From an uncultured virus (IMG/VR IMGVR_UViG_3300023198_000928) (Duplodnaviria; Heunggongvirae; Uroviricota; Caudoviricetes), in IMG/VR virus record IMGVR_UViG_3300023198_000928: DNA of 33,887 nucleotides; one strand, 5' to 3'. Shown here piece after piece: positions 2,406 through 32,455 of the stretch. The translations under genes were made by a program, and so were the position numbers. The first letter of the stretch is position 1; each line of letters starts with the position of its first letter. The notes beneath the pieces were generated by a model. The model was not told where the DNA came from and ran no database searches. It was given only the letters and a program-made list of their open reading frames with translations.

Positions 2406-4109
2406 ATGTCTTCTATAAAAATTAAAGGTGGGATATTATATAAGAAAATGCAGATTGGAGGATCCATTTCTTTAAATAATAAAATTGGAAAAGAATTTAC
2501 TCGTAATTGGTTAAATAGTCCAATAACACAGGAAAAATATGCTGATAATCTTAGAGAAATGAGTACTGGAACTACAGAAAAATTCGAAAACCCATTACTT
2601 AAATCCAATTATTTGCCCTCTAGTTTAAATAGAGATAAATATCAACGCAAAGCTCAGGCAAATTTACTAAGTGGAGTACAAAATATAAATAAATCTAAAG
2701 TCAGAGTTCTTCCTCAACAACAAGGTCCTACGGCAGAATATACACCTTTTAACAAAACTGTAAATTATTATAGAGAAAATCCTACCGCAGGCACTGCTAC
2801 TCATGAATATACCCATGTAGGTAGTGATATAGGTAAGGAAAAAGGTATTGACAGACAATTAACAGAATATGTGATAGATAAATTTGGATTTAGTAGGGCC
2901 ATACGAGAAAAACATCCTACTGCTCCAACTACTCGAGAAGCTGTAAAAAAAGAATTTAATGTTAATGGTAATTTATTTCTTAATGACAAAATGAGAAATA
3001 TTGAGTATAAAACTCAAAAAGGTGAATTATATCCTAGATTTATGGAGATGAGACAATTTTTAAATGTTCAGCCAGGACAACCTATTGATGACATAATGAT
3101 TGACAAACTAATGAATAACAAGAAAACAGGAAGTACTGCTAGATTCTATACAAAAGAAAAACTTAAAAATATATTAAATACTATTGCATTTAACGATGCT
3201 CAATCTAATATGGGTAACACAAGAACTGCAGCTGCAGGAGGAATATTATATAAGAAAATGCAGTCAGGAGGCCCTGTAGTAGAACCTTTAGTACAAGAAG
3301 CTGCCAAAGATAAGATAGGGAATGTTAACTTTAATACTCCTGATTTATACCAAATTCCCACACCCACACCTCATATGAACCCCGAGCCTTCGGCTCCTTC
3401 TGACTTTAGTAATCTACAACGACTAAATAAGGCTATTGGTGGAGGTGTTGATTTTGGAAAAGTAATGGGATTTTTCGGGCAATTAGCTGAGGCTGAGAGC
3501 TTTGGAGGGAAGGAGTTAACGAATCCAAAAAGCAGTGCTCAAGGATACTTCCATTTCTTAATCGATAACGGTGGTGGATATAATAAAGCCGGTTCTAAGA
3601 TATATGGAGGAAACTATGACTCTAAAGGAAAGATAGCTAATTCTAGTTTTGGCTCAGCTAAACAGAGGATAAGAAATCTAAAAGATACTGCATATGCTCA
3701 AGCAATAGATAGGGATCCTCAATTGAAAGCTACTCTAGATAAAATATCCTCTACTAATAATATAAATGACTTAAATCCTGAAGAACAAGCAATGCTTGCA
3801 TATGTAAGTCTGAAGATGAAGAGTAATACTTTTAGTGACTTTTTAAGGGATGAAGAAACTGCTGAAAATGTATATATAAAAGATTGGGTTACATTGTCAG
3901 GGAAACATACTAAAAAGGGAATAAATAAAAATTGGAGAGACGCAGCAATTAGACGACAGCCGGGAGGAGAGGCATTCAACTTAGTAACCAGAGGTACATT
4001 AGATGAAGCTCTATTTGGTATAAAGTCATATAGATTAGGAGGTAAACCGCTTCCATCGCCTGCTACTGAATTTATAAATAAAATAAAAGAAGCTAATAGG
4101 TTAGTATAA
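2406..4109 (+). CDS. Putative virion protein: zincin metallopeptidase-like domain plus lysozyme/lytic transglycosylase-like domain
   Basis: THEYTH (HExxH) with downstream GELYPR; AEAESFGG...NPKSSAQGYFHF resembles the SLT ES...SSA.G.FQF motif; GGILYKKMQ.GG precedes each domain. Confidence 0.65.
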   Translation: MSSIKIKGGILYKKMQIGGSISLNNKIGKEFTRNWLNSPITQEKYADNLREMSTGTTEKFENPLLKSNYLPSSLNRDKYQRKAQANLLSGVQNINKSKVRVLPQQQGPTAEYTPFNKTVNYYRENPTAGTATHEYTHVGSDIGKEKGIDRQLTEYVIDKFGFSRAIREKHPTAPTTREAVKKEFNVNGNLFLNDKMRNIEYKTQKGELYPRFMEMRQFLNVQPGQPIDDIMIDKLMNNKKTGSTARFYTKEKLKNILNTIAFNDAQSNMGNTRTAAAGGILYKKMQSGGPVVEPLVQEAAKDKIGNVNFNTPDLYQIPTPTPHMNPEPSAPSDFSNLQRLNKAIGGGVDFGKVMGFFGQLAEAESFGGKELTNPKSSAQGYFHFLIDNGGGYNKAGSKIYGGNYDSKGKIANSSFGSAKQRIRNLKDTAYAQAIDRDPQLKATLDKISSTNNINDLNPEEQAMLAYVSLKMKSNTFSDFLRDEETAENVYIKDWVTLSGKHTKKGINKNWRDAAIRRQPGGEAFNLVTRGTLDEALFGIKSYRLGGKPLPSPATEFINKIKEANRLV

Positions 4110-4119
4110 TAAAAATCAC

Positions 4120-4127
4120 TATATTTG
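4120..4127 (+). promoter_or_regulatory. Bacteroidota sigma70-type -7 element for tRNA block 1
   Basis: TATATTTG matches TANNTTTG, 30 nt upstream of leader ORF 1. Confidence 0.6.
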
Positions 4128-4157
4128 TGTAACGAATTTACGAATTATAATTTAACT

Positions 4158-4244
4158 ATGAACAATATACAACTGCATATCGAGCGCCAGGAACCGTTAC
4201 AAAGTAATGGAAGGATCTCTGTATGTGGAGTCGATGGTTTATAG
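4158..4244 (+). CDS. Attenuator leader peptide 1 (MNNIQLHIERQEPLQSNGRISVCGVDGL)
   Basis: Codons 5-15 (caa ctg cat atc gag cgc cag gaa ccg tta caa) match the downstream Pro, Glu, Gln, His, Leu, Leu and Arg tRNAs. GAAGGATC 4210-4217 is complementary to the terminator 5' arm. Confidence 0.8.
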   Translation: MNNIQLHIERQEPLQSNGRISVCGVDGL

Positions 4245-4271
4245 CCCTTGGTGTAACATAATTAAAAAGAT

Positions 4272-4302
4272 GATCCTTCTAAGAAATTAGAGGGATTTTT
4301 TT
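4272..4302 (+). terminator. Intrinsic terminator (attenuator 1) just before tRNA-Pro
   Basis: GATCCTTCTAA-gaaa-TTAGAGGGATT stem followed by a T-run. Confidence 0.85.
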
Positions 4303-4312
4303 ATATCAAATT

Positions 4313-4386
4313 CTAGGTGTAGCGTAGTCAGGTAACGCGCGTGCTTTGGGTGTACGAGAACGGGAGTTCGAATCTCTCCATCTAGA
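4313..4386 (+). tRNA. trnP: tRNA-Pro(TGG)
   Basis: Cloverleaf; acceptor ctaggtg/catctag, anticodon loop tttgggt, T-loop ttcgaat. Confidence 0.93.
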
Positions 4387-4441
4387 CAAAAGGTTTTAGC
4401 CCTTCCCCGTGTGAGTAATTGACACAAAATGAAGAGCATCT

Positions 4442-4514
4442 GGCGCGGTCTTCTAGTGGATCAGGAATCCGGGTTTTCATCCCGGCAACCGGAGTTCGAT
4501 TCTCCGTCGCGCTA
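4442..4514 (+). tRNA. trnE: tRNA-Glu(TTC)
   Basis: Acceptor ggcgcgg/tcgcgct; anticodon arm ccggg-ttttcat-cccgg. Confidence 0.93.
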
Positions 4515-4605
4515 CAAAATGGTCACTATAGTAGCTAATAGTCGGTAAAAATCCGATTAATAGCTACCAGAGTAGCTAACTATTCGTGATTCGCGAATTG
4601 GAAAT

Positions 4606-4677
4606 TGGGTCGAAGTGTTATGGATGTGCACATCGGTTTTTGGTACCGAAAGACAGGGTTCGATGCCCGCGGCCCAC
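4606..4677 (+). tRNA. trnQ: tRNA-Gln(TTG)
   Basis: Acceptor tgggtcg/cggccca; arm tcggt-ttttggt-accga; bulged T-stem. Confidence 0.85.
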
Positions 4678-4679
4678 CT

Positions 4680-4753
4680 GTGTATGAAGCTAAAGTGGCC
4701 GAAGCGTCGGTTTGTGGTACCGAAGATAGGGGGTTCGAGTCTCCTCATACACC
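4680..4753 (+). tRNA. trnH: tRNA-His(GTG), no encoded G-1
   Basis: Acceptor gtgtatg/catacac with C73; arm tcggt-ttgtggt-accga. Confidence 0.9.
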
Positions 4754-4758
4754 CAAAA

Positions 4759-4843
4759 GCAGTAGGGAGGAATTATACTAGTTGATATAGCCTCGCCGCC
4801 CCGTGGAGGGAGGAAAAGCTCAGACTTATCACTGAGATACTGC
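4759..4843 (+). ncRNA. Putative structured multibranch RNA between tRNAs
   Basis: Closing stem gcagta/tactgc encloses hairpins gagg..cctc and ctcag-acttatca-ctgag. Confidence 0.4.
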
Positions 4844-4848
4844 AAAAT

Positions 4849-4933
4849 GCTCCTATGGCGGAACTAGGTAGACGCTCTAGATTTAGGATCTAGTATCAGT
4901 AATGGTGTGAGAGTTCGATTCTCTCTGGGAGTA
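4849..4933 (+). tRNA. trnL: tRNA-Leu(TAG)
   Basis: Acceptor gctccta/tgggagt; arm ctaga-tttagga-tctag; long variable arm. Confidence 0.93.
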
Positions 4934-4938
4934 CAATA

Positions 4939-5037
4939 GTCAGGATAGACGTGCAGTGATGTATGGATTACGCCTAGTATAGATTAATTATCTATTGATG
5001 AGGGGATAGAAATGAGAGGTTCCCTTTAAGTCCTGGC
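4939..5037 (+). ncRNA. Putative structured RNA between tRNAs
   Basis: Closing stem gtcagga/tcctggc; internal atagat-taatt-atctat and agggga..ttccct helices. Confidence 0.35.
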
Positions 5038-5048
5038 GACGTTATAAT

Positions 5049-5134
5049 GCCTTCGTGATGGAACTGGTAGACATAGCGGACTTAAAATCCGTGGGTCAGG
5101 AATGGCCGTGAGGGTTCGACTCCCTTCTTAGGTA
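5049..5134 (+). tRNA. trnL: tRNA-Leu(TAA)
   Basis: Arm gcgga-cttaaaa-tccgt; long variable arm; two acceptor mismatches. Confidence 0.9.
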
Positions 5135-5142
5135 CTAAATAC

Positions 5143-5216
5143 GGCTTGCTAGCTTAACTGAACAAAGCACTTGATTACGGCTCATGAGATTCGGGGTTTG
5201 AATCCCTGGCAGGCTT
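5143..5216 (+). tRNA. trnR: tRNA-Arg(ACG)
   Basis: Acceptor ggcttgc/gcaggct; loop ttacggc; T-loop tttgaat. Confidence 0.88.
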
Positions 5217-5270
5217 CTGATTTTCACTATTTTAATAGTATTATATTAATATAATTTATACCTTTAAGAT

Positions 5271-5516
5271 ATGAAAGTAAACACAAGACTTATAGAAGTT
5301 ATCGCCACTGATAAGGTTGATGTGGCAGATATGAAAGATGTACCAATTGTAACCTTTGCGGACTACTGGTATCATAAAAACGATCTTGCTATCTCAGAAG
5401 ATGGCACTAACACGATTCTTATAGGATTCAATGTGGGTAAAAATACTAATTCCTTATTTTTAAAGGATAGAGATGTTAAAGCTGGAGAAAAGTACAGATT
5501 AAAATTAAAAGATTAG
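5271..5516 (+). CDS. Hypothetical protein
   Basis: 81-aa ORF in a gap between tRNAs, preceded by a GTATTATA motif. Confidence 0.6.
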   Translation: MKVNTRLIEVIATDKVDVADMKDVPIVTFADYWYHKNDLAISEDGTNTILIGFNVGKNTNSLFLKDRDVKAGEKYRLKLKD

Positions 5517-5537
5517 TATATATTAGAATAATTTTCA

Positions 5538-5545
5538 TATATTTG
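5538..5545 (+). promoter_or_regulatory. Bacteroidota sigma70-type -7 element for tRNA block 2
   Basis: TATATTTG(TGTA), same context as 4120 and also 30 nt upstream of its leader ORF. Confidence 0.6.
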
Positions 5546-5575
5546 TGTAGGTTTAATAAAACATTTTAGCATTCA

Positions 5576-5656
5576 GTGAATTTAAGTATAAATATAGCGA
5601 CAAGAATTATGGTCGGGACGGATAAGTCTCCGAAAGGATCTTGTTGGTATGGATAA
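5576..5656 (+). CDS. Attenuator leader peptide 2 (GTG start; MNLSINIATRIMVGTDKSPKGSCWYG)
   Basis: Codons 7-17 (ata gcg aca aga att atg gtc ggg acg gat aag) match the block 2 tRNAs. AAGGATCTT 5634-5642 is complementary to AAGATCCTT 5680-5688. Confidence 0.8.
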   Translation: MNLSINIATRIMVGTDKSPKGSCWYG

Positions 5657-5681
5657 GTAAATTCACATACAATATAATAAA

Positions 5682-5714
5682 GATCCTTCTAACTTCCATT
5701 TAGAGGGATTTTTT
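5682..5714 (+). terminator. Intrinsic terminator (attenuator 2) just before tRNA-Ala
   Basis: GATCCTTCTAA-cttccat-TTAGAGGGATT plus T-run; stem arms identical to attenuator 1. Confidence 0.85.
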
Positions 5715-5725
5715 AGTTAACAACC

Positions 5726-5798
5726 GGCCCTGAAGCTCTACTGGCTGAGCATCTCCCTTGCACGGAGAAGGTTGCGAGTTCGAGTCTCGTCAGGCCCA
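5726..5798 (+). tRNA. trnA: tRNA-Ala(TGC), C3:C70 in place of G3:U70
   Basis: Arm tctcc-cttgcac-ggaga; acceptor ggccctg/caggccc. Confidence 0.85.
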
Positions 5799-5884
5799 CA
5801 ATAATGATTAGAAGATTATGTATTTAAGTAAGAAGAAATATAAACAGTAATTAGCCCTTTGAGAAATGAGGGTGTTATTTATAT

Positions 5885-5956
5885 GCCTTCGTAGCTTAAT
5901 GGTAAAGCAACTGACTTTTAATCAGTAGACCAAGAGATCGGTACTCTTCGAAGGTA
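5885..5956 (+). tRNA. trnK: tRNA-Lys(TTT)
   Basis: Acceptor gccttcg/cgaaggt; arm actga-cttttaa-tcagt; atypical T-loop atcggta. Confidence 0.88.
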
Positions 5957-5982
5957 CAAAGAAAGATTGGGCTAAATAAAAT

Positions 5983-6054
5983 TGGGTTATAGCTCAGGGG
6001 TAGAGCAGCTGTCCGATACACAGCAGGTCATCAGTTCAAATCTGATTAATCCTA
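5983..6054 (+). tRNA. trnI: tRNA-Ile(GAT)
   Basis: Arm gctgt-ccgatac-acagc (C33); T-loop ttcaaat. Confidence 0.88.
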
Positions 6055-6065
6055 CAAAAGAAAAC

Positions 6066-6138
6066 GCAGGTATAGTGTTAGCGTGTAGCATGCGAGCCTT
6101 CCAAGCTCAGGGGGTCAGTTCGAATCTGGTTACCTGCA
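6066..6138 (+). tRNA. trnG: tRNA-Gly(TCC)
   Basis: Acceptor gcaggta/tacctgc; loop cttccaa. Confidence 0.9.
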
Positions 6139-6149
6139 CAAAATTAAAT

Positions 6150-6221
6150 AGTGACGTAGCTCAGTGGTAGAGCAGTCGGTTCATATCCTTCAGGTCACGG
6201 GTTCAAATCCCGTCGTCGCAA
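6150..6221 (+). tRNA. trnM: tRNA(CAT), probably elongator Met
   Basis: Loop ttcatat; weak anticodon stem gtcgg/ccttc; canonical D and T arms. Confidence 0.75.
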
Positions 6222-6233
6222 CAAAGAAAAAAT

Positions 6234-6306
6234 CGCGAGGTAGAGCAGGGGCCAGCTCGTTGGGCTCATAACCCAGAGGTCGGCGGTTCGAATCCGTCCC
6301 TCGCTA
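6234..6306 (+). tRNA. trnfM: Initiator tRNA-fMet(CAT)
   Basis: C1:U72 mismatch; three consecutive G-C pairs in ttggg-ctcataa-cccag. Confidence 0.92.
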
Positions 6307-6364
6307 CTACAAATAAAGATAAGTTCAGGGCTTTCCCCCAGCGCGGGTTTTAGATTGAACAAAC

Positions 6365-6440
6365 GGTGGCGCAGCATACATGGGAGCATGGCGTCTGCCT
6401 GTCACGCAGAAGATTGCGGGTTCGAGTCCCGTCGTTACCG
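6365..6440 (+). tRNA. trnD: tRNA-Asp(GTC)
   Basis: Acceptor ggtggcg/cgttacc with G73; arm tctgc-ctgtcac-gcaga; atypical D-arm. Confidence 0.88.
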
Positions 6441-6454
6441 CAAAGTTTAGGAGA

Positions 6455-6537
6455 TATCCTAGACAACTATTAGAGTAAGGAGACCACTGTCCTACAGGTA
6501 GTGATCGACGCAGCAGGACCTTAACTCTCTTAGGATA
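6455..6537 (+). ncRNA. Putative long-hairpin RNA between tRNAs
   Basis: Nested stems tatccta/taggata and agagtaagg/ccttaactct. Confidence 0.35.
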
Positions 6538-6538
6538 A

Positions 6539-6611
6539 TCCGGAATAGCTCAATCGGTAGAGCAGCTGTTTTGTAATCAGCAGGTCGTCAGTTCGAGCCT
6601 GACTTTCGGAT
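6539..6611 (+). tRNA. trnT: tRNA-Thr(TGT)
   Basis: Acceptor tccggaa/tttcgga; loop tttgtaa. Confidence 0.9.
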
Positions 6612-6712
6612 CAAATAGTACTTAGAACACCTCTCGTGAAGTCTTGAAGTGTCCCAATCTAAGTCTTTTACGAGGAGATAGGTTACACGTGGCCGGGAAA
6701 GTCTCCTCACTT

Positions 6713-6786
6713 GCAGTGGTAGCTCAGGGGTAAAGAGCATCTGTTTTACATGCAGAGGGTCGATGGTTCGAATCCATCTCACTGTA
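6713..6786 (+). tRNA. trnV: tRNA-Val(TAC)
   Basis: Acceptor gcagtgg/tcactgt; arm tctgt-tttacat-gcaga. Confidence 0.92.
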
Positions 6787-6797
6787 CAAATTTACCA

Positions 6798-6871
6798 GGG
6801 ACTGTAGCTCAACTGAACAGAGCAGCATGCTTCTATCTTGCCGGTTGGGGGTTTGAATCCCTTCAGTCTCT
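6798..6871 (+). tRNA. trnR: tRNA-Arg(TCT)
   Basis: Acceptor gggactg/cagtctc; loop cttctat; T-loop tttgaat. Confidence 0.88.
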
Positions 6872-6877
6872 CTAAAT

Positions 6878-6951
6878 CGTCCTATAGCTCAGTAGGTCAG
6901 AGCAGGTCACTCATAATGATCAGGCCCTCGGTTCGATCCCGAGTAGGACAA
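6878..6951 (+). tRNA. trnI: tRNA(CAT), probably Ile2 (lysidine type, reads ATA)
   Basis: Arm ggtca-ctcataa-tgatc with A73; third CAT tRNA in the block. Confidence 0.75.
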
Positions 6952-7028
6952 CTAAATAGTAGCTATCATCATTACTTTGTCATATAAATTTTGTATTATA
7001 TAGAAGTAACATTCAATTTAAATTATAT

Positions 7029-7376
7029 ATGATTTACTACAAGAAAACCAATCGACCAGATCCCCGCCACACTCGCACATCATTTCAATCATTCAAAACC
7101 GGAGGTAACATTCTTTTAGGAGTAAAGAAGATCCCTAGCAGTATGAAAGAAACTATTAGTCCTTACATTATTAAAAGTAGTAAGTATCACGGTAAAAATG
7201 GAATAATTACTGGGCTAAGAAAACCATTAAATATGGACTCTGATGCAAGGGGACTAGGATTCGGTGCGGACAAGGATGGATTTTTTGTACATACTCATAG
7301 AGCTCGTAGTAAATCTTATCCTACTCCGTTCAAAATTCCTAAGGATAAAATTAAATTTATAAAATCCACTGGATAA
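7029..7376 (+). CDS. Basic hypothetical protein with a GG motif
   Basis: 115 aa; FKTGGNILL motif; GTATTATA upstream. Confidence 0.65.
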   Translation: MIYYKKTNRPDPRHTRTSFQSFKTGGNILLGVKKIPSSMKETISPYIIKSSKYHGKNGIITGLRKPLNMDSDARGLGFGADKDGFFVHTHRARSKSYPTPFKIPKDKIKFIKSTG

Positions 7377-7424
7377 TTCAAATATTTTTGTATCTTTATT
7401 ACTTAATATTAAAGACCGATATAC

Positions 7425-7577
7425 ATGGATTTTATTTTTGGATTACTAATAGGAGCTGTACTTGGAGGATTAATTGGAATCTTAGTGTACAGAAACAACG
7501 AAGAAAAAGCGAGTAAAATAGCAGATAAAGTTGACGATGTCGTAGAGGATATTAAAGATATAGGAAAAAAAGAATAA
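7425..7577 (+). CDS. Small membrane-anchored protein (YtxH-like pattern)
   Basis: MDFIFGLLIGAVLGGLIGILVYRNNEEKASKIADKVDDVVEDIKDIGKKE; stop lies 2 nt before leader 3. Confidence 0.7.
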   Translation: MDFIFGLLIGAVLGGLIGILVYRNNEEKASKIADKVDDVVEDIKDIGKKE

Positions 7578-7579
7578 TC

Positions 7580-7654
7580 ATGAAAGCAATTTATTGTACA
7601 TATAATAGTTTTAATTTTTGGTCGAATCGTTCGAGCAAGACTTCTATTGTATGA
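7580..7654 (+). CDS. Attenuator leader peptide 3 (MKAIYCTYNSFNFWSNRSSKTSIV)
   Basis: Codons 5-16 (tat tgt aca tat aat agt ttt aat ttt tgg tcg aat) match the Tyr, Cys, Asn, Ser, Ser, Phe and Trp tRNAs. GCAAGACTTC 7635-7644 is complementary to GAAGTCTTGC 7692-7701. Confidence 0.82.
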   Translation: MKAIYCTYNSFNFWSNRSSKTSIV

Positions 7655-7691
7655 TGTAAATTGAAAAACATATACTAATACTTAACCTAAG

Positions 7692-7720
7692 GAAGTCTTG
7701 CAGAAATGTAGGACTTTTTT
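7692..7720 (+). terminator. Intrinsic terminator (attenuator 3) before tRNA-Tyr
   Basis: GAAGTCTTGCA-gaaa-TGTAGGACTTT followed by a T-run. Confidence 0.85.
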
Positions 7721-7737
7721 ATGGTCTATAATAATCT

Positions 7738-7804
7738 GGATTAGCGGTGGTAGGGGCCGAGTCTGTAAAACTCTAGCCGGAAGGTTCGAATCCTTTCTAG
7801 TCCA
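7738..7804 (+). tRNA. trnY: tRNA-Tyr(GTA), atypical (reduced D-arm, short variable region)
   Basis: Acceptor ggattag/ctagtcc; arm gagt-ctgtaaa-actc; T-arm gaagg-ttcgaat-ccttt. Confidence 0.7.
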
Positions 7805-8022: not shown

Positions 8023-8107
8023 AGAGAGTAAACTGGACAGGCGCGCCAGATGCGATTGCTAATCGTTATGAGGGTAATACCTTTCGGTTCGAGACCGATT
8101 CTCTCTT
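8023..8107 (+). tRNA. trnS: tRNA-Ser(GCT)
   Basis: Acceptor agagag/ctctct; arm gcga-ttgctaa-tcgt; variable arm present. Confidence 0.82.
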
Positions 8108-8226
8108 CTAAATGAAGTAATAAGTTTTGAGCCGAATAAATTAAGTAATCAGCTCATGAAAAGTGAGAATGCAGCTCAAAATGATATGATAATGAGCCGT
8201 ATATATTAGTTTAGTGAGCAGTAAAT

Positions 8227-8727: not shown

Positions 8728-8800
8728 GTGTCTGTGTCCGAGAGGCTAAGGTAGATGGTTGCAACCCTGAAGATCGCTGGTTCGAGTCCAGTCAGACATT
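8728..8800 (+). tRNA. trnC: tRNA-Cys(GCA), weak anticodon stem
   Basis: Acceptor gtgtctg/cagacat with U73; loop ttgcaac. Confidence 0.8.
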
Positions 8801-8886
8801 CAAATAGACATCCTTATTATAGAAAATGGGGATAAATGAAAATAAGAGTAATCGCTAATTAAGAAAAGAGGCGAAAACTTAAATAA

Positions 8887-9671: not shown

Positions 9672-9931
9672 CTTCACTCCCCACTAAAGTACCCAAAAAA
9701 AAATAAATTTTATTGTAGCGACTTTGGACATTAAATTTTTGTCTGGTTGTAGGGAAATGAAAAGTTTGGAGAGGGACGGGCGTGCTGAACCCCTATACTC
9801 ATTTGGCCCCGACCCGAATTTCAGGGGAAACGTTTTTCGCTTCAATCGACGGGTAGGTCCATTCGTATATGCACTTCGTGAACCGGTGTAGGTCTCTCAC
9901 GATATCGCGATAGTCTTGCTCAACCTCCATC

Positions 9932-9960
9932 GGTTTAAGGCTCCGCTTGTCTTAATTTTT
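9932..9960 (+). promoter_or_regulatory. TTAAGGC-N7/8-GTCTYAA hairpin element, copy 1 (others at 10998-11020 and 11810-11841)
   Basis: Same imperfect inverted repeat lies upstream of three consecutive gene groups. Confidence 0.5.
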
Positions 9961-11694: not shown

Positions 11695-11701
11695 GTACTA
11701 C

Positions 11702-11738
11702 AGGACAATTCAGAGAGATCTGGGTTGTCCTTTTTTTT
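11702..11738 (+). terminator. Intrinsic terminator
   Basis: aggacaattcag-agagat-ctgggttgtcct followed by a T-run. Confidence 0.85.
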
Positions 11739-11930
11739 CTCCTGCCCTAGACCGATTTAAACCCACCCACTAACCCCTATTCGAAGGTAGCATTGGAGTA
11801 TTAGTCTGGGTTAAGGCTCCACCTTGTCTCAACTTTTTTTTGTCGCTCCCGCATGAGGTGACATCCGTGTCGTTTGACATGGTACTTAGAACATGCAGTA
11901 ATTACGTAATAACTAAATAATTAATTAATT

Positions 11931-31782: not shown

Positions 31783-32079
31783 ATGAGGCTAGCGGTACGA
31801 AAAATCCACACTTGATCCATCACACCATAAGATGTAAACAGCATGGTATTAAACACGCACTTTATAGCGTATACAAAAACTATATATAAAGCCACGAAGA
31901 TGGCAACCTATAAAAGTTTAAATGTTAAAGCTTAAAGTTTAAAGTGTAAAGATCAAAGATTAAATTATTAAATATTAAAGGCTTTAAAGTAAAAAGTTGG
32001 ATCAAATCCAAAATAAAAGTTTTAAATGTATTGATTAATTGACATGGGTTTTGAATTTGGCTGTACCGTTCAGTCTCAT
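31783..32079 (+). ncRNA. Putative 300-nt structured RNA with about 12 heptamer (YAAAGNN) repeats
   Basis: Ends pair (atgaggct/agtctcat and gcggtac/gtaccgt); repeats span 31912-31998; internal caaatccaaaat/gttttgaatttg stem. Confidence 0.65.
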
Positions 32080-32100
32080 ATTAAAAAAATGTGTACCATT

Positions 32101-32355
32101 ATGACACACGATGAAAAAATAAATTATATGAGGATTGCTGCAGGCATGGCATCCTTTAATCTCACAAATGCTCACTTAGATTTATTAGTAAGTCTTTATG
32201 AGCTAGTTATTAAAACAGAAGGAGAGGGAACTATTTCAGATGCTGTTGAAATTGAGATGGCTGTAGAACAAAGAGCTTTAGAGGCAGAAAAAATAGCCCT
32301 TATCAAAAGAAAACAAGCATTATTAGATGAGGTTTCTGAAAAAGTAGAGAACTAA
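32101..32355 (+). CDS. Hypothetical protein
   Basis: ATG 32101 (MTHDEKINYMRIA) preferred because 32044 lies inside the RNA element. Confidence 0.7.
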   Translation: MTHDEKINYMRIAAGMASFNLTNAHLDLLVSLYELVIKTEGEGTISDAVEIEMAVEQRALEAEKIALIKRKQALLDEVSEKVEN

Positions 32356-32366
32356 TTATGCACACA

Positions 32367-32439
32367 GGCTTGATAGCTCAGTTGGTAGAGCAAAGGATTA
32401 AACGTCCGAGTGTCCTAGGTTCGATTCCTAGTCGAGCCA
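32367..32439 (+). tRNA. Orphan tRNA-Phe-like gene with aberrant anticodon arm (apparent AAA anticodon)
   Basis: Acceptor ggcttga/tcgagcc and canonical D/T arms; anticodon arm aagga-ttaaacg-tccga. Confidence 0.7.
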
Positions 32440-32455
32440 CTAAATAATATAAGTT

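Follow-up and report, generated by a model that had tools for sequence, protein, structure and literature searches.

A codon-matched leader before a phage tRNA block: a candidate ribosome-mediated attenuator of tRNA genes

Why and when phages use their transfer RNA (tRNA) genes has been debated for decades. The question takes a specific form in a 33,887-nucleotide (nt) stretch of DNA from an uncultured virus of the Caudoviricetes (IMG/VR record IMGVR_UViG_3300023198_000928; the whole stretch is called the window here). About 29 tRNA genes lie in three blocks in the 5' third of the window: what decides when such a block is transcribed? Block 2 is preceded by an element, attenuator 2, which consists of a promoter-like box, a short open reading frame (ORF) and an intrinsic terminator, and the codons of the ORF call for the amino acids of the tRNA genes downstream. 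We consider it likely, with a probability of roughly three in four, that attenuator 2 is a ribosome-mediated leader-peptide transcription attenuator gating tRNA block 2 in a phage with Bacteroidota-type promoters. Sequence analysis establishes the parts of the element, their duplication, the match between codons and tRNA genes, the recurrence of the design in other phages and its covariation with block content.

In the mechanism that we propose, transcription would begin past the box and the 26-codon leader would be translated from its GTG. Scarcity of an aminoacyl-tRNA of a block 2 kind would stall the ribosome within codons 7-17, where it would melt region 1 and free region 2; region 2 could then pair with the terminator 5' arm, which would let RNA polymerase read on into the 11 tRNA genes. 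A ribosome that had moved past the run would cover region 2, the terminator would form, and transcription would stop 13 nt before tRNA-Ala. With no ribosome on the leader, region 1 would pair with region 2 and the terminator would form as well. Since the products would be the sensed molecules, tRNA supply would be subject to a direct negative feedback that combines nine amino acids by OR logic. Leader translation, the direction of the switch and its physiological trigger are what we infer here: the phage probably makes block 2 tRNAs only when ribosomes run short of them.

Parts of attenuator 2 and the tRNA genes of block 2

A preliminary description of this locus had listed an ORF, an upstream box, terminator arms, an AAGGATC antiterminator core and a protector strand, and had interpreted them as a second copy of the module at attenuator 1. 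All of these elements were found at the positions described (Table 1), and the repeats bear out the duplication. There are exactly two copies of the box TATATTTGTGTA in the window (4120-4131 and 5538-5549), and both end 26 nt upstream of the start codon of a leader; the chance expectation is 0.03, and two matches were seen in 0/100 shuffles. It contains TATATTTG, which we take to fit the Bacteroidota -7 motif TAnnTTTG. The terminator arms GATCCTTCTAA and TTAGAGGGATT are likewise paired exactly twice (4272-4297 and 5682-5710; expected 0.00), and AAGGATC is common to both units (4211-4217 and 5634-5640). The core, which starts on the third codon position in leader 1 and on the second in leader 2, is thus read in two frames, and this places its conservation at the RNA level and not at the peptide level.

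Leader ORF 2 is bounded upstream by an in-frame TAG (5567-5569), so that the GTG is its first possible start. Its stop codon lies 70 nt before the first tRNA gene, tRNA-Ala; the terminator hairpin ends 13 nt before that gene, and 11 nt separate the end of the U tract from block 2. Region 2 begins 6 nt after the end of the codon run. In the minimum free energy (MFE) fold of 5550-5720, one long hairpin encloses the ORF, with 5598-5605 paired to 5639-5646, and the terminator hairpin follows. The energy of this fold was -47.2 kcal/mol (z score -5.83). Folds of window units 1, 2 and 3 gave z scores of -3.8, -5.8 and -4.9, and 0/200 shuffles were as good in each case.

Table 1. Positions in the window of attenuator 2, its two companion units and the three tRNA blocks (bp, base pairs).
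Feature	Position	Strand	Details
Promoter-like box	5538..5549	+	TATATTTGTGTA, containing TATATTTG
Leader ORF 2	5576..5656	+	GTG start 5576-5578; 26 codons; TAA stop 5654-5656; peptide VNLSINIATRIMVGTDKSPKGSCWYG
Sensing codon run	5594..5626	+	Codons 7-17 (IATRIMVGTDK); 11 consecutive codons; 9/9 block 2 amino acids
Region 1	5598..5605	+	Protector (anti-antiterminator) 5' strand; lies within the codon run; MFE pairing partner 5639-5646
Region 2	5633..5646	+	5634-5642, antiterminator 5' strand; 5639-5646, protector 3' strand
Intrinsic terminator	5680..5714	+	13-bp hairpin 5680-5712; U tract ending at 5714
tRNA block 2 (proposed regulated genes, n=11)	5726..6952	+	Ala(tgc), Lys(ttt), Ile(gat), Gly(tcc), CAT, CAT (initiator-like), Asp(gtc), Thr(tgt), Val(tac), Arg(tct), CAT (probably Ile2)
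Attenuator 1	4120..4302	+	Same box; leader ORF 4158-4244; same terminator arms; precedes block 1
tRNA block 1	after attenuator 1		Pro, Glu, Gln, His, Leu, Leu, Arg(acg)
Attenuator 3	7580..7725	+	Leader ORF 7580-7654 and terminator; precedes block 3
tRNA block 3	after attenuator 3		Tyr, Ser, Ser, Asn, Cys-like, Trp, Phe

The DNA of the window is that of a phage; among its PHROG matches are a replication initiator, tail proteins and a 669-amino-acid conserved phage protein. ARAGORN with default settings found 22 tRNA genes in it, 21 of them within the array. Rfam contributed two more, Gly(tcc) (6066-6138) and a gene whose anticodon is GCA (8728-8800), and relaxed ARAGORN added Tyr(gta) at 7734-7803 and Ser(gct) at 8023-8108. 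Combined, blocks 1-3 cover all 20 amino acids. The content of block 2 was compiled from default ARAGORN, Rfam, relaxed ARAGORN and an alignment of the CAT tRNAs; all nine of its amino acids rest on genes called by default ARAGORN or at the Rfam gathering score, and the set is independent of the relaxed or by-eye tRNA calls made in other loci. Among the three CAT genes, the one at 6234-6307 has the first-pair mismatch and the three G:C pairs of an initiator, and the one at 6878-6952 corresponds in position to Ile(tat) of phage Calle_1.

The amino acids named by the codon run of leader 2 are exactly the nine of block 2. The longest run was 11 codons against block 2, compared with 1 against block 1 and 4 against block 3, in agreement with the proposal in the preliminary description that the sensor codons of a duplicated module had been rewritten to match the new block. 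Random peptides of the same length and of the phage's own amino-acid composition served as control; out of 400,000 draws, 88 reached the run length and coverage of leader 2. Leaders 1 (MNNIQLHIERQEPLQSNGRISVCGVDGL) and 3 (MKAIYCTYNSFNFWSNRSSKTSIV) also fit their own blocks, with scores reached by 277 and 1 of 400,000 random peptides, respectively.

The match extends to anticodons. A tally of codons by hand found a strictly cognate codon in leader 2 for 8 of the 9 anticodon species of block 2. Its GGG codon is accounted for by Gly(tcc), the gene that default ARAGORN missed, and its two ATA codons are consistent with one of the three CAT tRNAs being a lysidine-type Ile2. Val is represented by GTC only, which would need either a host tRNA or, as had been pointed out before, extended wobble by the sole Val tRNA (anticodon TAC). 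It had also been suggested that the GTG start makes the leader a sensor of initiator tRNA. In the classical model, failed initiation would lead to termination, whereas a homeostatic sensor would have to respond the other way, and we consider this idea unlikely.

Recurrence of the leaders and their covariation with block content

Comparison with relatives revealed the same design in five other phage lineages, with 12 further leaders of the same build and thus 15 in total with those of the window. The nearest arrays in the phage collection were those of the Cellulophaga phages phi17:2 and phi4:1, whose tRNA genes follow the same block order as those of the window and, in the longer matches, are 70-77% identical to them. 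Their three leaders gave scores reached by 0, 79 and 1 of 400,000 random peptides. In phi17:2, leader 1 has a run of 11 codons covering 6/6 amino acids, leader 2 a run of 16 covering 8/9 and leader 3 a run of 10 covering 5/6. Leader 2 of phi17:2, like that of the window, starts with GTG; it names Val by GTT only, and its block also holds an initiator-like CAT tRNA. The combination of a GTG start with such a tRNA was seen in these two related lineages only. The Cellulophaga phage Calle_1 (NC_062744.1, L016) belongs to a different family (Pervagoviridae) and has three leaders after three copies of one promoter module, with runs of 14, 11 and 16 codons; their scores were reached by 0, 610 and 0 random peptides.

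Scanning metagenome contigs with a tRNA-His pattern gave eight loci, two of which carried leaders. In one of them (L008), leader 1 has a run of 22 codons covering 11/12 amino acids and leader 2 a run of 17 covering 7/7 (2 and 0 random peptides of 400,000). In the other (L010), the runs are 11 and 20 codons, covering 7/7 and 13/13 amino acids (0 and 28). The same pattern gave five loci in viral contigs, of which three were chance matches in coding DNA, one was phi4:1 and one (L005) was a truncated tRNA array with no upstream DNA remaining; a further metagenome locus (L014) lies on the same contig as L005. The fifth lineage is a 635-kb uncultured phage (LR745206.1, L017), with two leaders reached by 1133 and 2998 of 400,000 random peptides.

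AT-rich phage DNA is rich in short ORFs and hairpins, and the leaders could in principle be chance ORFs beside ordinary terminators of upstream genes, with the tRNA genes transcribed from elsewhere. Such coincidence would have to be repeated in 15 independent cases whose per-leader counts range from 0 to 2998 of 400,000, and in 15/15 leaders the longest run was obtained against the leader's own block. In all 15, moreover, only 4-20 nt separate the terminator from the first tRNA gene, a gap that would leave no room for a separate promoter. We regard chance as extremely improbable.

The content of the leaders follows the content of the blocks. L008 and L010 divide the amino acids among their blocks unlike the window, and their leaders track their own division. 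Across the 13 strong leaders and their blocks, a tally by hand found a strictly cognate codon in the own leader for 111 of 115 anticodon species; allowing U34 four-way wobble or lysidine reading raised this to 114, the one missing being Ala in L008 leader 1. A codon for the Arg tRNA of its own block is present in every leader, and the Arg codons within the runs are CGN before blocks with Arg(acg) and AGA or AGG before blocks with Arg(tct); the exception is the Pro-block leader of Calle_1, whose run also opens with AGA. The leaders even pointed to tRNA genes that had been overlooked. In L010 leader 2, an Asn codon hinted at a gene that ARAGORN had missed; Rfam finds this tRNA, with an anticodon that reads GTT, and the GGG codon of window leader 2 likewise pointed to Gly(tcc).

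Agreement between codons and anticodons at the level of isoacceptors in the hand tally, together with the highly structured leader, is also what might be expected of a translation-independent RNA sensor, either with triplets that bind anticodons directly, in the manner of a T-box with many specifiers, or as a riboswitch or protein-binding site. The Rfam searches (gathering score, or E-values up to 5) of window 4100-7750 and of the related loci assigned no family to the leaders, T-box included. Nor did the leader families of the Thr, His, Leu, Trp and similar amino-acid operons match; sub-threshold matches on the leaders were to terminator-like small RNA (sRNA) models only (E-values of at least 0.5). 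These searches exclude a T-box, an amino-acid leader family or another known RNA family. In 15/15 leaders, furthermore, the triplets share a single reading frame bounded by a start and a stop codon, their distance from the terminator is fixed, the second codons are A-rich, as is typical of translated ORFs, and no conserved motif for binding the tRNA acceptor end is visible. A sensor that works without translation is thus very unlikely in our view.

Between homologous leaders the order of residues differs and the composition is kept. This bears on the possibility that the true product is an sRNA or a micropeptide, namely the short terminated transcript or the peptide that it encodes, and that its place before the tRNA genes is incidental. 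Leader RNAs and peptides of classical attenuators can act in trans, as reported for peTrpL and rnTrpL (PMC7298713, PMC7968998). An independent product would, however, leave unexplained why the composition tracks the downstream tRNA content in 15/15 leaders, with peptide order not conserved, and we judge it highly unlikely.

Several further features of these related loci were recorded. Leader 2 of phi17:2 is annotated as gp077 (L001 4473-4592), from an upstream TTG inside the promoter repeat; leaders 1 and 3 are unannotated, and gp078 (6414-6515) overlaps a tRNA-Ser(tga) found by relaxed ARAGORN. Promoter modules are near-identical within a phage (phi17:2 L001 3503-3548 and 4445-4490, 98% over 46 nt; Calle_1 copies at L016 1400-1434, 2994-3029 and 4234-4269), and in both phages the leader ATG lies only 4-5 nt past the promoter box. 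The short distance suggests leaderless mRNAs, and the near-identical copies suggest concerted evolution of the modules. The sequence AAY ATA GCG (Asn-Ile-Ala) is common to window leader 2 (5591-5602), the Ala-block leader of Calle_1 (L016, about 1470-1481) and leader 1 of LR745206.1 (L017, about 5857-5865). The last of these precedes a Tyr/Glu block, which contains neither Ile nor Ala; the shared motif may have been inherited from a common ancestor, or it may have a structural role. In the Calle_1 record, annotated tRNA coordinates are about 52 nt off the ARAGORN and Rfam positions, and the Tyr, Glu, Cys and Ile(tat) genes found by relaxed ARAGORN are absent. HNH-like ORFs lie between the tRNA genes of L008, and a leader-free array (L009) holds a group I intron on the minus strand at 1590-1780 (RF00028, 73.6 bits).

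Geometry of the proposed switch and direction of control

A common plan is seen in 15/15 leaders: a hairpin enclosing the ORF, a spacer, a hairpin of 7-16 bp with a U tract, and the first tRNA gene at the short distance given above. The stop codon lies 57-80 nt before the first tRNA gene in 10/10 leaders measured. Equilibrium folding with the full terminator was uninformative about a switch because the terminator dominates, and a truncated-transcript model was used instead, in which the transcript ends before the terminator 3' arm and 28 nt around the A site are masked as ribosome. With a ribosome modelled in the leader 2 run, the MFE structure paired positions from 5634 onward with a stretch ending at 5688; 5634-5642 and 5680-5688 are complementary over 9 bp. 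Modelled sequestration of the terminator 5' arm in attenuator 2 was 0.00 with no ribosome, 0.67 with the A site in the run and 0.03 with the ribosome past the run. Sequestration was greater in the run than past it in 15/15 leaders. The duplex between region 2 and the terminator 5' arm was calculated at -11.9 kcal/mol, compared with -7.3 ± 2.0 kcal/mol in shuffles.

The same parts could serve the opposite logic, in which smooth translation of the leader promotes read-through, for example by coupling to RNA polymerase or by opening the RNA, and stalls shut off the tRNA genes. Equilibrium folding with the full terminator barely shifts with ribosome position in attenuator 2, which fits this logic, the direction of our proposal being set by the kinetic model only. 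On the other hand, 22-24 nt separate the stop codon from the terminator 5' arm that follows it in the leader 2 unit (13-49 nt over the 15 leaders), so that a terminating ribosome cannot cover the terminator. Of the 13 leaders whose terminator is correctly placed, 10 have region 2 starting 0-8 nt past the run, as would be expected for stall-induced antitermination. Under a positive loop, moreover, the phage would be starved of just those tRNAs that it lacks. We therefore consider the opposite logic unlikely and retain attenuator 2 as a candidate for antitermination by stalled ribosomes.

Several results weigh against that assignment. In the folding models, the duplex energy of attenuator 2 was reached by 9/300 shuffles and its modelled sequestration by 20/100, and only 8 of the 15 leaders pass at ≤5/100 shuffles for sequestration. 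With the full terminator present, the equilibrium probability of the terminator in attenuator 2 is at least 0.90 at every ribosome position; given this dominance, the switch would have to be kinetic. As modelled, the antiterminator pairing of attenuator 2 is only modestly above shuffles. The modelled switch geometry is consistent and recurrent across the set, and for attenuator 2 alone it is not individually decisive. At the level of codons, GTC is not strictly decoded by Val(TAC), and codons 2-4 and 6 of leader 2 (Asn, Leu, Ser, Asn) belong to other blocks. Only 1-3 codons are present per tRNA, far fewer than in the tandem runs of his and trp leaders, which makes the sensitivity of the sensor uncertain.

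Other points concern the comparison across phages. Both leaders of LR745206.1 are weak by the random-peptide count. No such leaders were seen in the metagenomic tRNA arrays L009, L011, L012/L015 and L013, in the 16 kb examined of the 642-kb phage LR756502.1 (L018) or in the crAss-like cr115_1 (L019), in which two lone tRNAs are annotated and whose sequence was not scanned for leaders. Some tRNA calls are also less secure. Those of Tyr, Ser(gct) and the Cys-like gene in the window were taken from relaxed ARAGORN or read by eye, as were the Leu(tag) anticodon of Calle_1, Pro and Leu(tag) of L008, and Tyr and the Asn anticodon of L010; an Ala-like gene of Calle_1 was found neither by Rfam nor by relaxed ARAGORN and is unannotated in the record. 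Some of the relaxed or by-eye tRNAs were sought only after the leader had been read.

Known attenuators, possible significance and other features of the window

Leader-peptide attenuators that respond to more than one amino acid are known from enterobacteria: the thr leader has Thr and Ile codons, and the ilvGMEDA leader Ile, Leu and Val codons. The phage leaders would resemble these in a short translated leader with codons for several amino acids, in mutually exclusive protector, antiterminator and terminator pairings, and in read-through behind a stalled ribosome. They differ in that they would regulate tRNAs instead of biosynthetic enzymes, so that the product itself would be sensed. In addition, they list 6-14 amino acids with 1-3 codons each, whereas thr and ilv leaders have tandem repeats for one to three, they distinguish isoacceptors (CGN from AGA), they are borne by phages, and they share no sequence or Rfam relationship with the enterobacterial leaders. 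The pheST attenuator of E. coli, which controls phenylalanyl-tRNA synthetase through Phe codons only, is likewise a leader-peptide attenuator of a gene of the translation apparatus with charged-tRNA feedback; there the synthetase is controlled, whereas here it would be the tRNA genes themselves, a whole block at once. With the T-box the leaders would share the sensing of a specific tRNA state by codon-anticodon pairing and the choice between antiterminator and terminator, but the T-box works without ribosomes, with one specifier codon and a conserved T-box sequence, while the phage codons lie in an ORF.

The design would be a form of leader-peptide attenuation that appears to be new in its target (tRNA genes), in its listing-style leader, in its discrimination of isoacceptors and in its phage setting. 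A full-text literature search, in which subscription-only papers were outside the scope, found no published description of attenuation control of tRNA genes. With up to 13 amino acids in one leader, this would be, to our knowledge, the most multivalent leader-peptide sensor. Mycobacteria are reported to have leaderless poly-Cys short ORFs that act as Cys-responsive attenuators (bioRxiv 10.1101/834739). As is proposed for the leaders of phi17:2 and Calle_1, an amino acid is sensed there by an ORF of minimal length that begins at the transcript 5' end or close to it; the mycobacterial ORFs differ in sensing a single amino acid, in having protein-coding targets and in belonging to a different phylum.

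If the proposed function is correct, it would be the first attenuation control of tRNA genes known to us, and a direct product-feedback loop. The phage would gauge decoding shortage codon by codon and answer with exactly the matching tRNAs, and the leader text would be a readable record of the tRNAs that each block is meant to supply. Current views are that phage tRNAs provide codon compensation or help the phage to evade anticodon nucleases and the retron and PARIS defences (PMC10264068, PMC11555353, PMC11464382). A tentative extension, to which we would give a little less than an even chance, is that codon-matched leader attenuators are a general modular phage device that runs tRNA arrays on demand, as an inducible counter-defence and supply circuit and not as a constitutive supplement to codon usage. 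A block would then be induced when stalls follow the run-down of host pools after shut-off, or cuts by tRNA-targeting defence nucleases. Three carriers of such leaders, the Cellulophaga phages phi17:2, phi4:1 and Calle_1, are cultivated. For annotation, the leader text predicts tRNA genes missed by gene finders (Gly in the window, Asn in L010) and exposes mis-annotated 'hypothetical proteins' such as phi17:2 gp077.

Two tRNA genes of the window are unusual. The tRNA-like gene with the GCA anticodon at 8728-8801 has a non-canonical anticodon stem-loop, is unnamed by ARAGORN and scores 36-40 bits with Rfam. It is conserved in phi17:2 (L001 7074-7147; a pseudo-tRNA in the annotation), and a TGT codon kept in leader 3 of both the window and phi17:2 matches it. 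A lone tRNA-Phe with the anticodon AAA lies at 32367-32440, 23 kb from the arrays, directly after an ORF (32044-32355) and without a leader of its own; an A34 Phe anticodon is unusual.

Outside the array, the ORF at 25453-26595 matches PHROG 1211 (E-value 1.6e-54), named '2-aminooxy adenylosuccinate synthetase', an adenylosuccinate-synthetase-like enzyme; the match may indicate a modified purine in the phage DNA. GC-rich non-coding islands lie amid otherwise AT-rich DNA at 1690-1860, 9700-9960 and 11700-11900. None of the three had an Rfam match and the second gave no fold signal (z score +0.28); a motif some 30 nt long is common to the 3' ends of the second and third (about 9930-9960 and 11808-11840). 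Upstream of attenuator 1, the ORF at 2406-4109 encodes a tail-like protein of 567 amino acids, for which no relatives were found in the viral contig collection. It contains a 36-nt direct repeat (2426-2461 and 3236-3271, 86% identical) that gives rise to a duplicated peptide motif.

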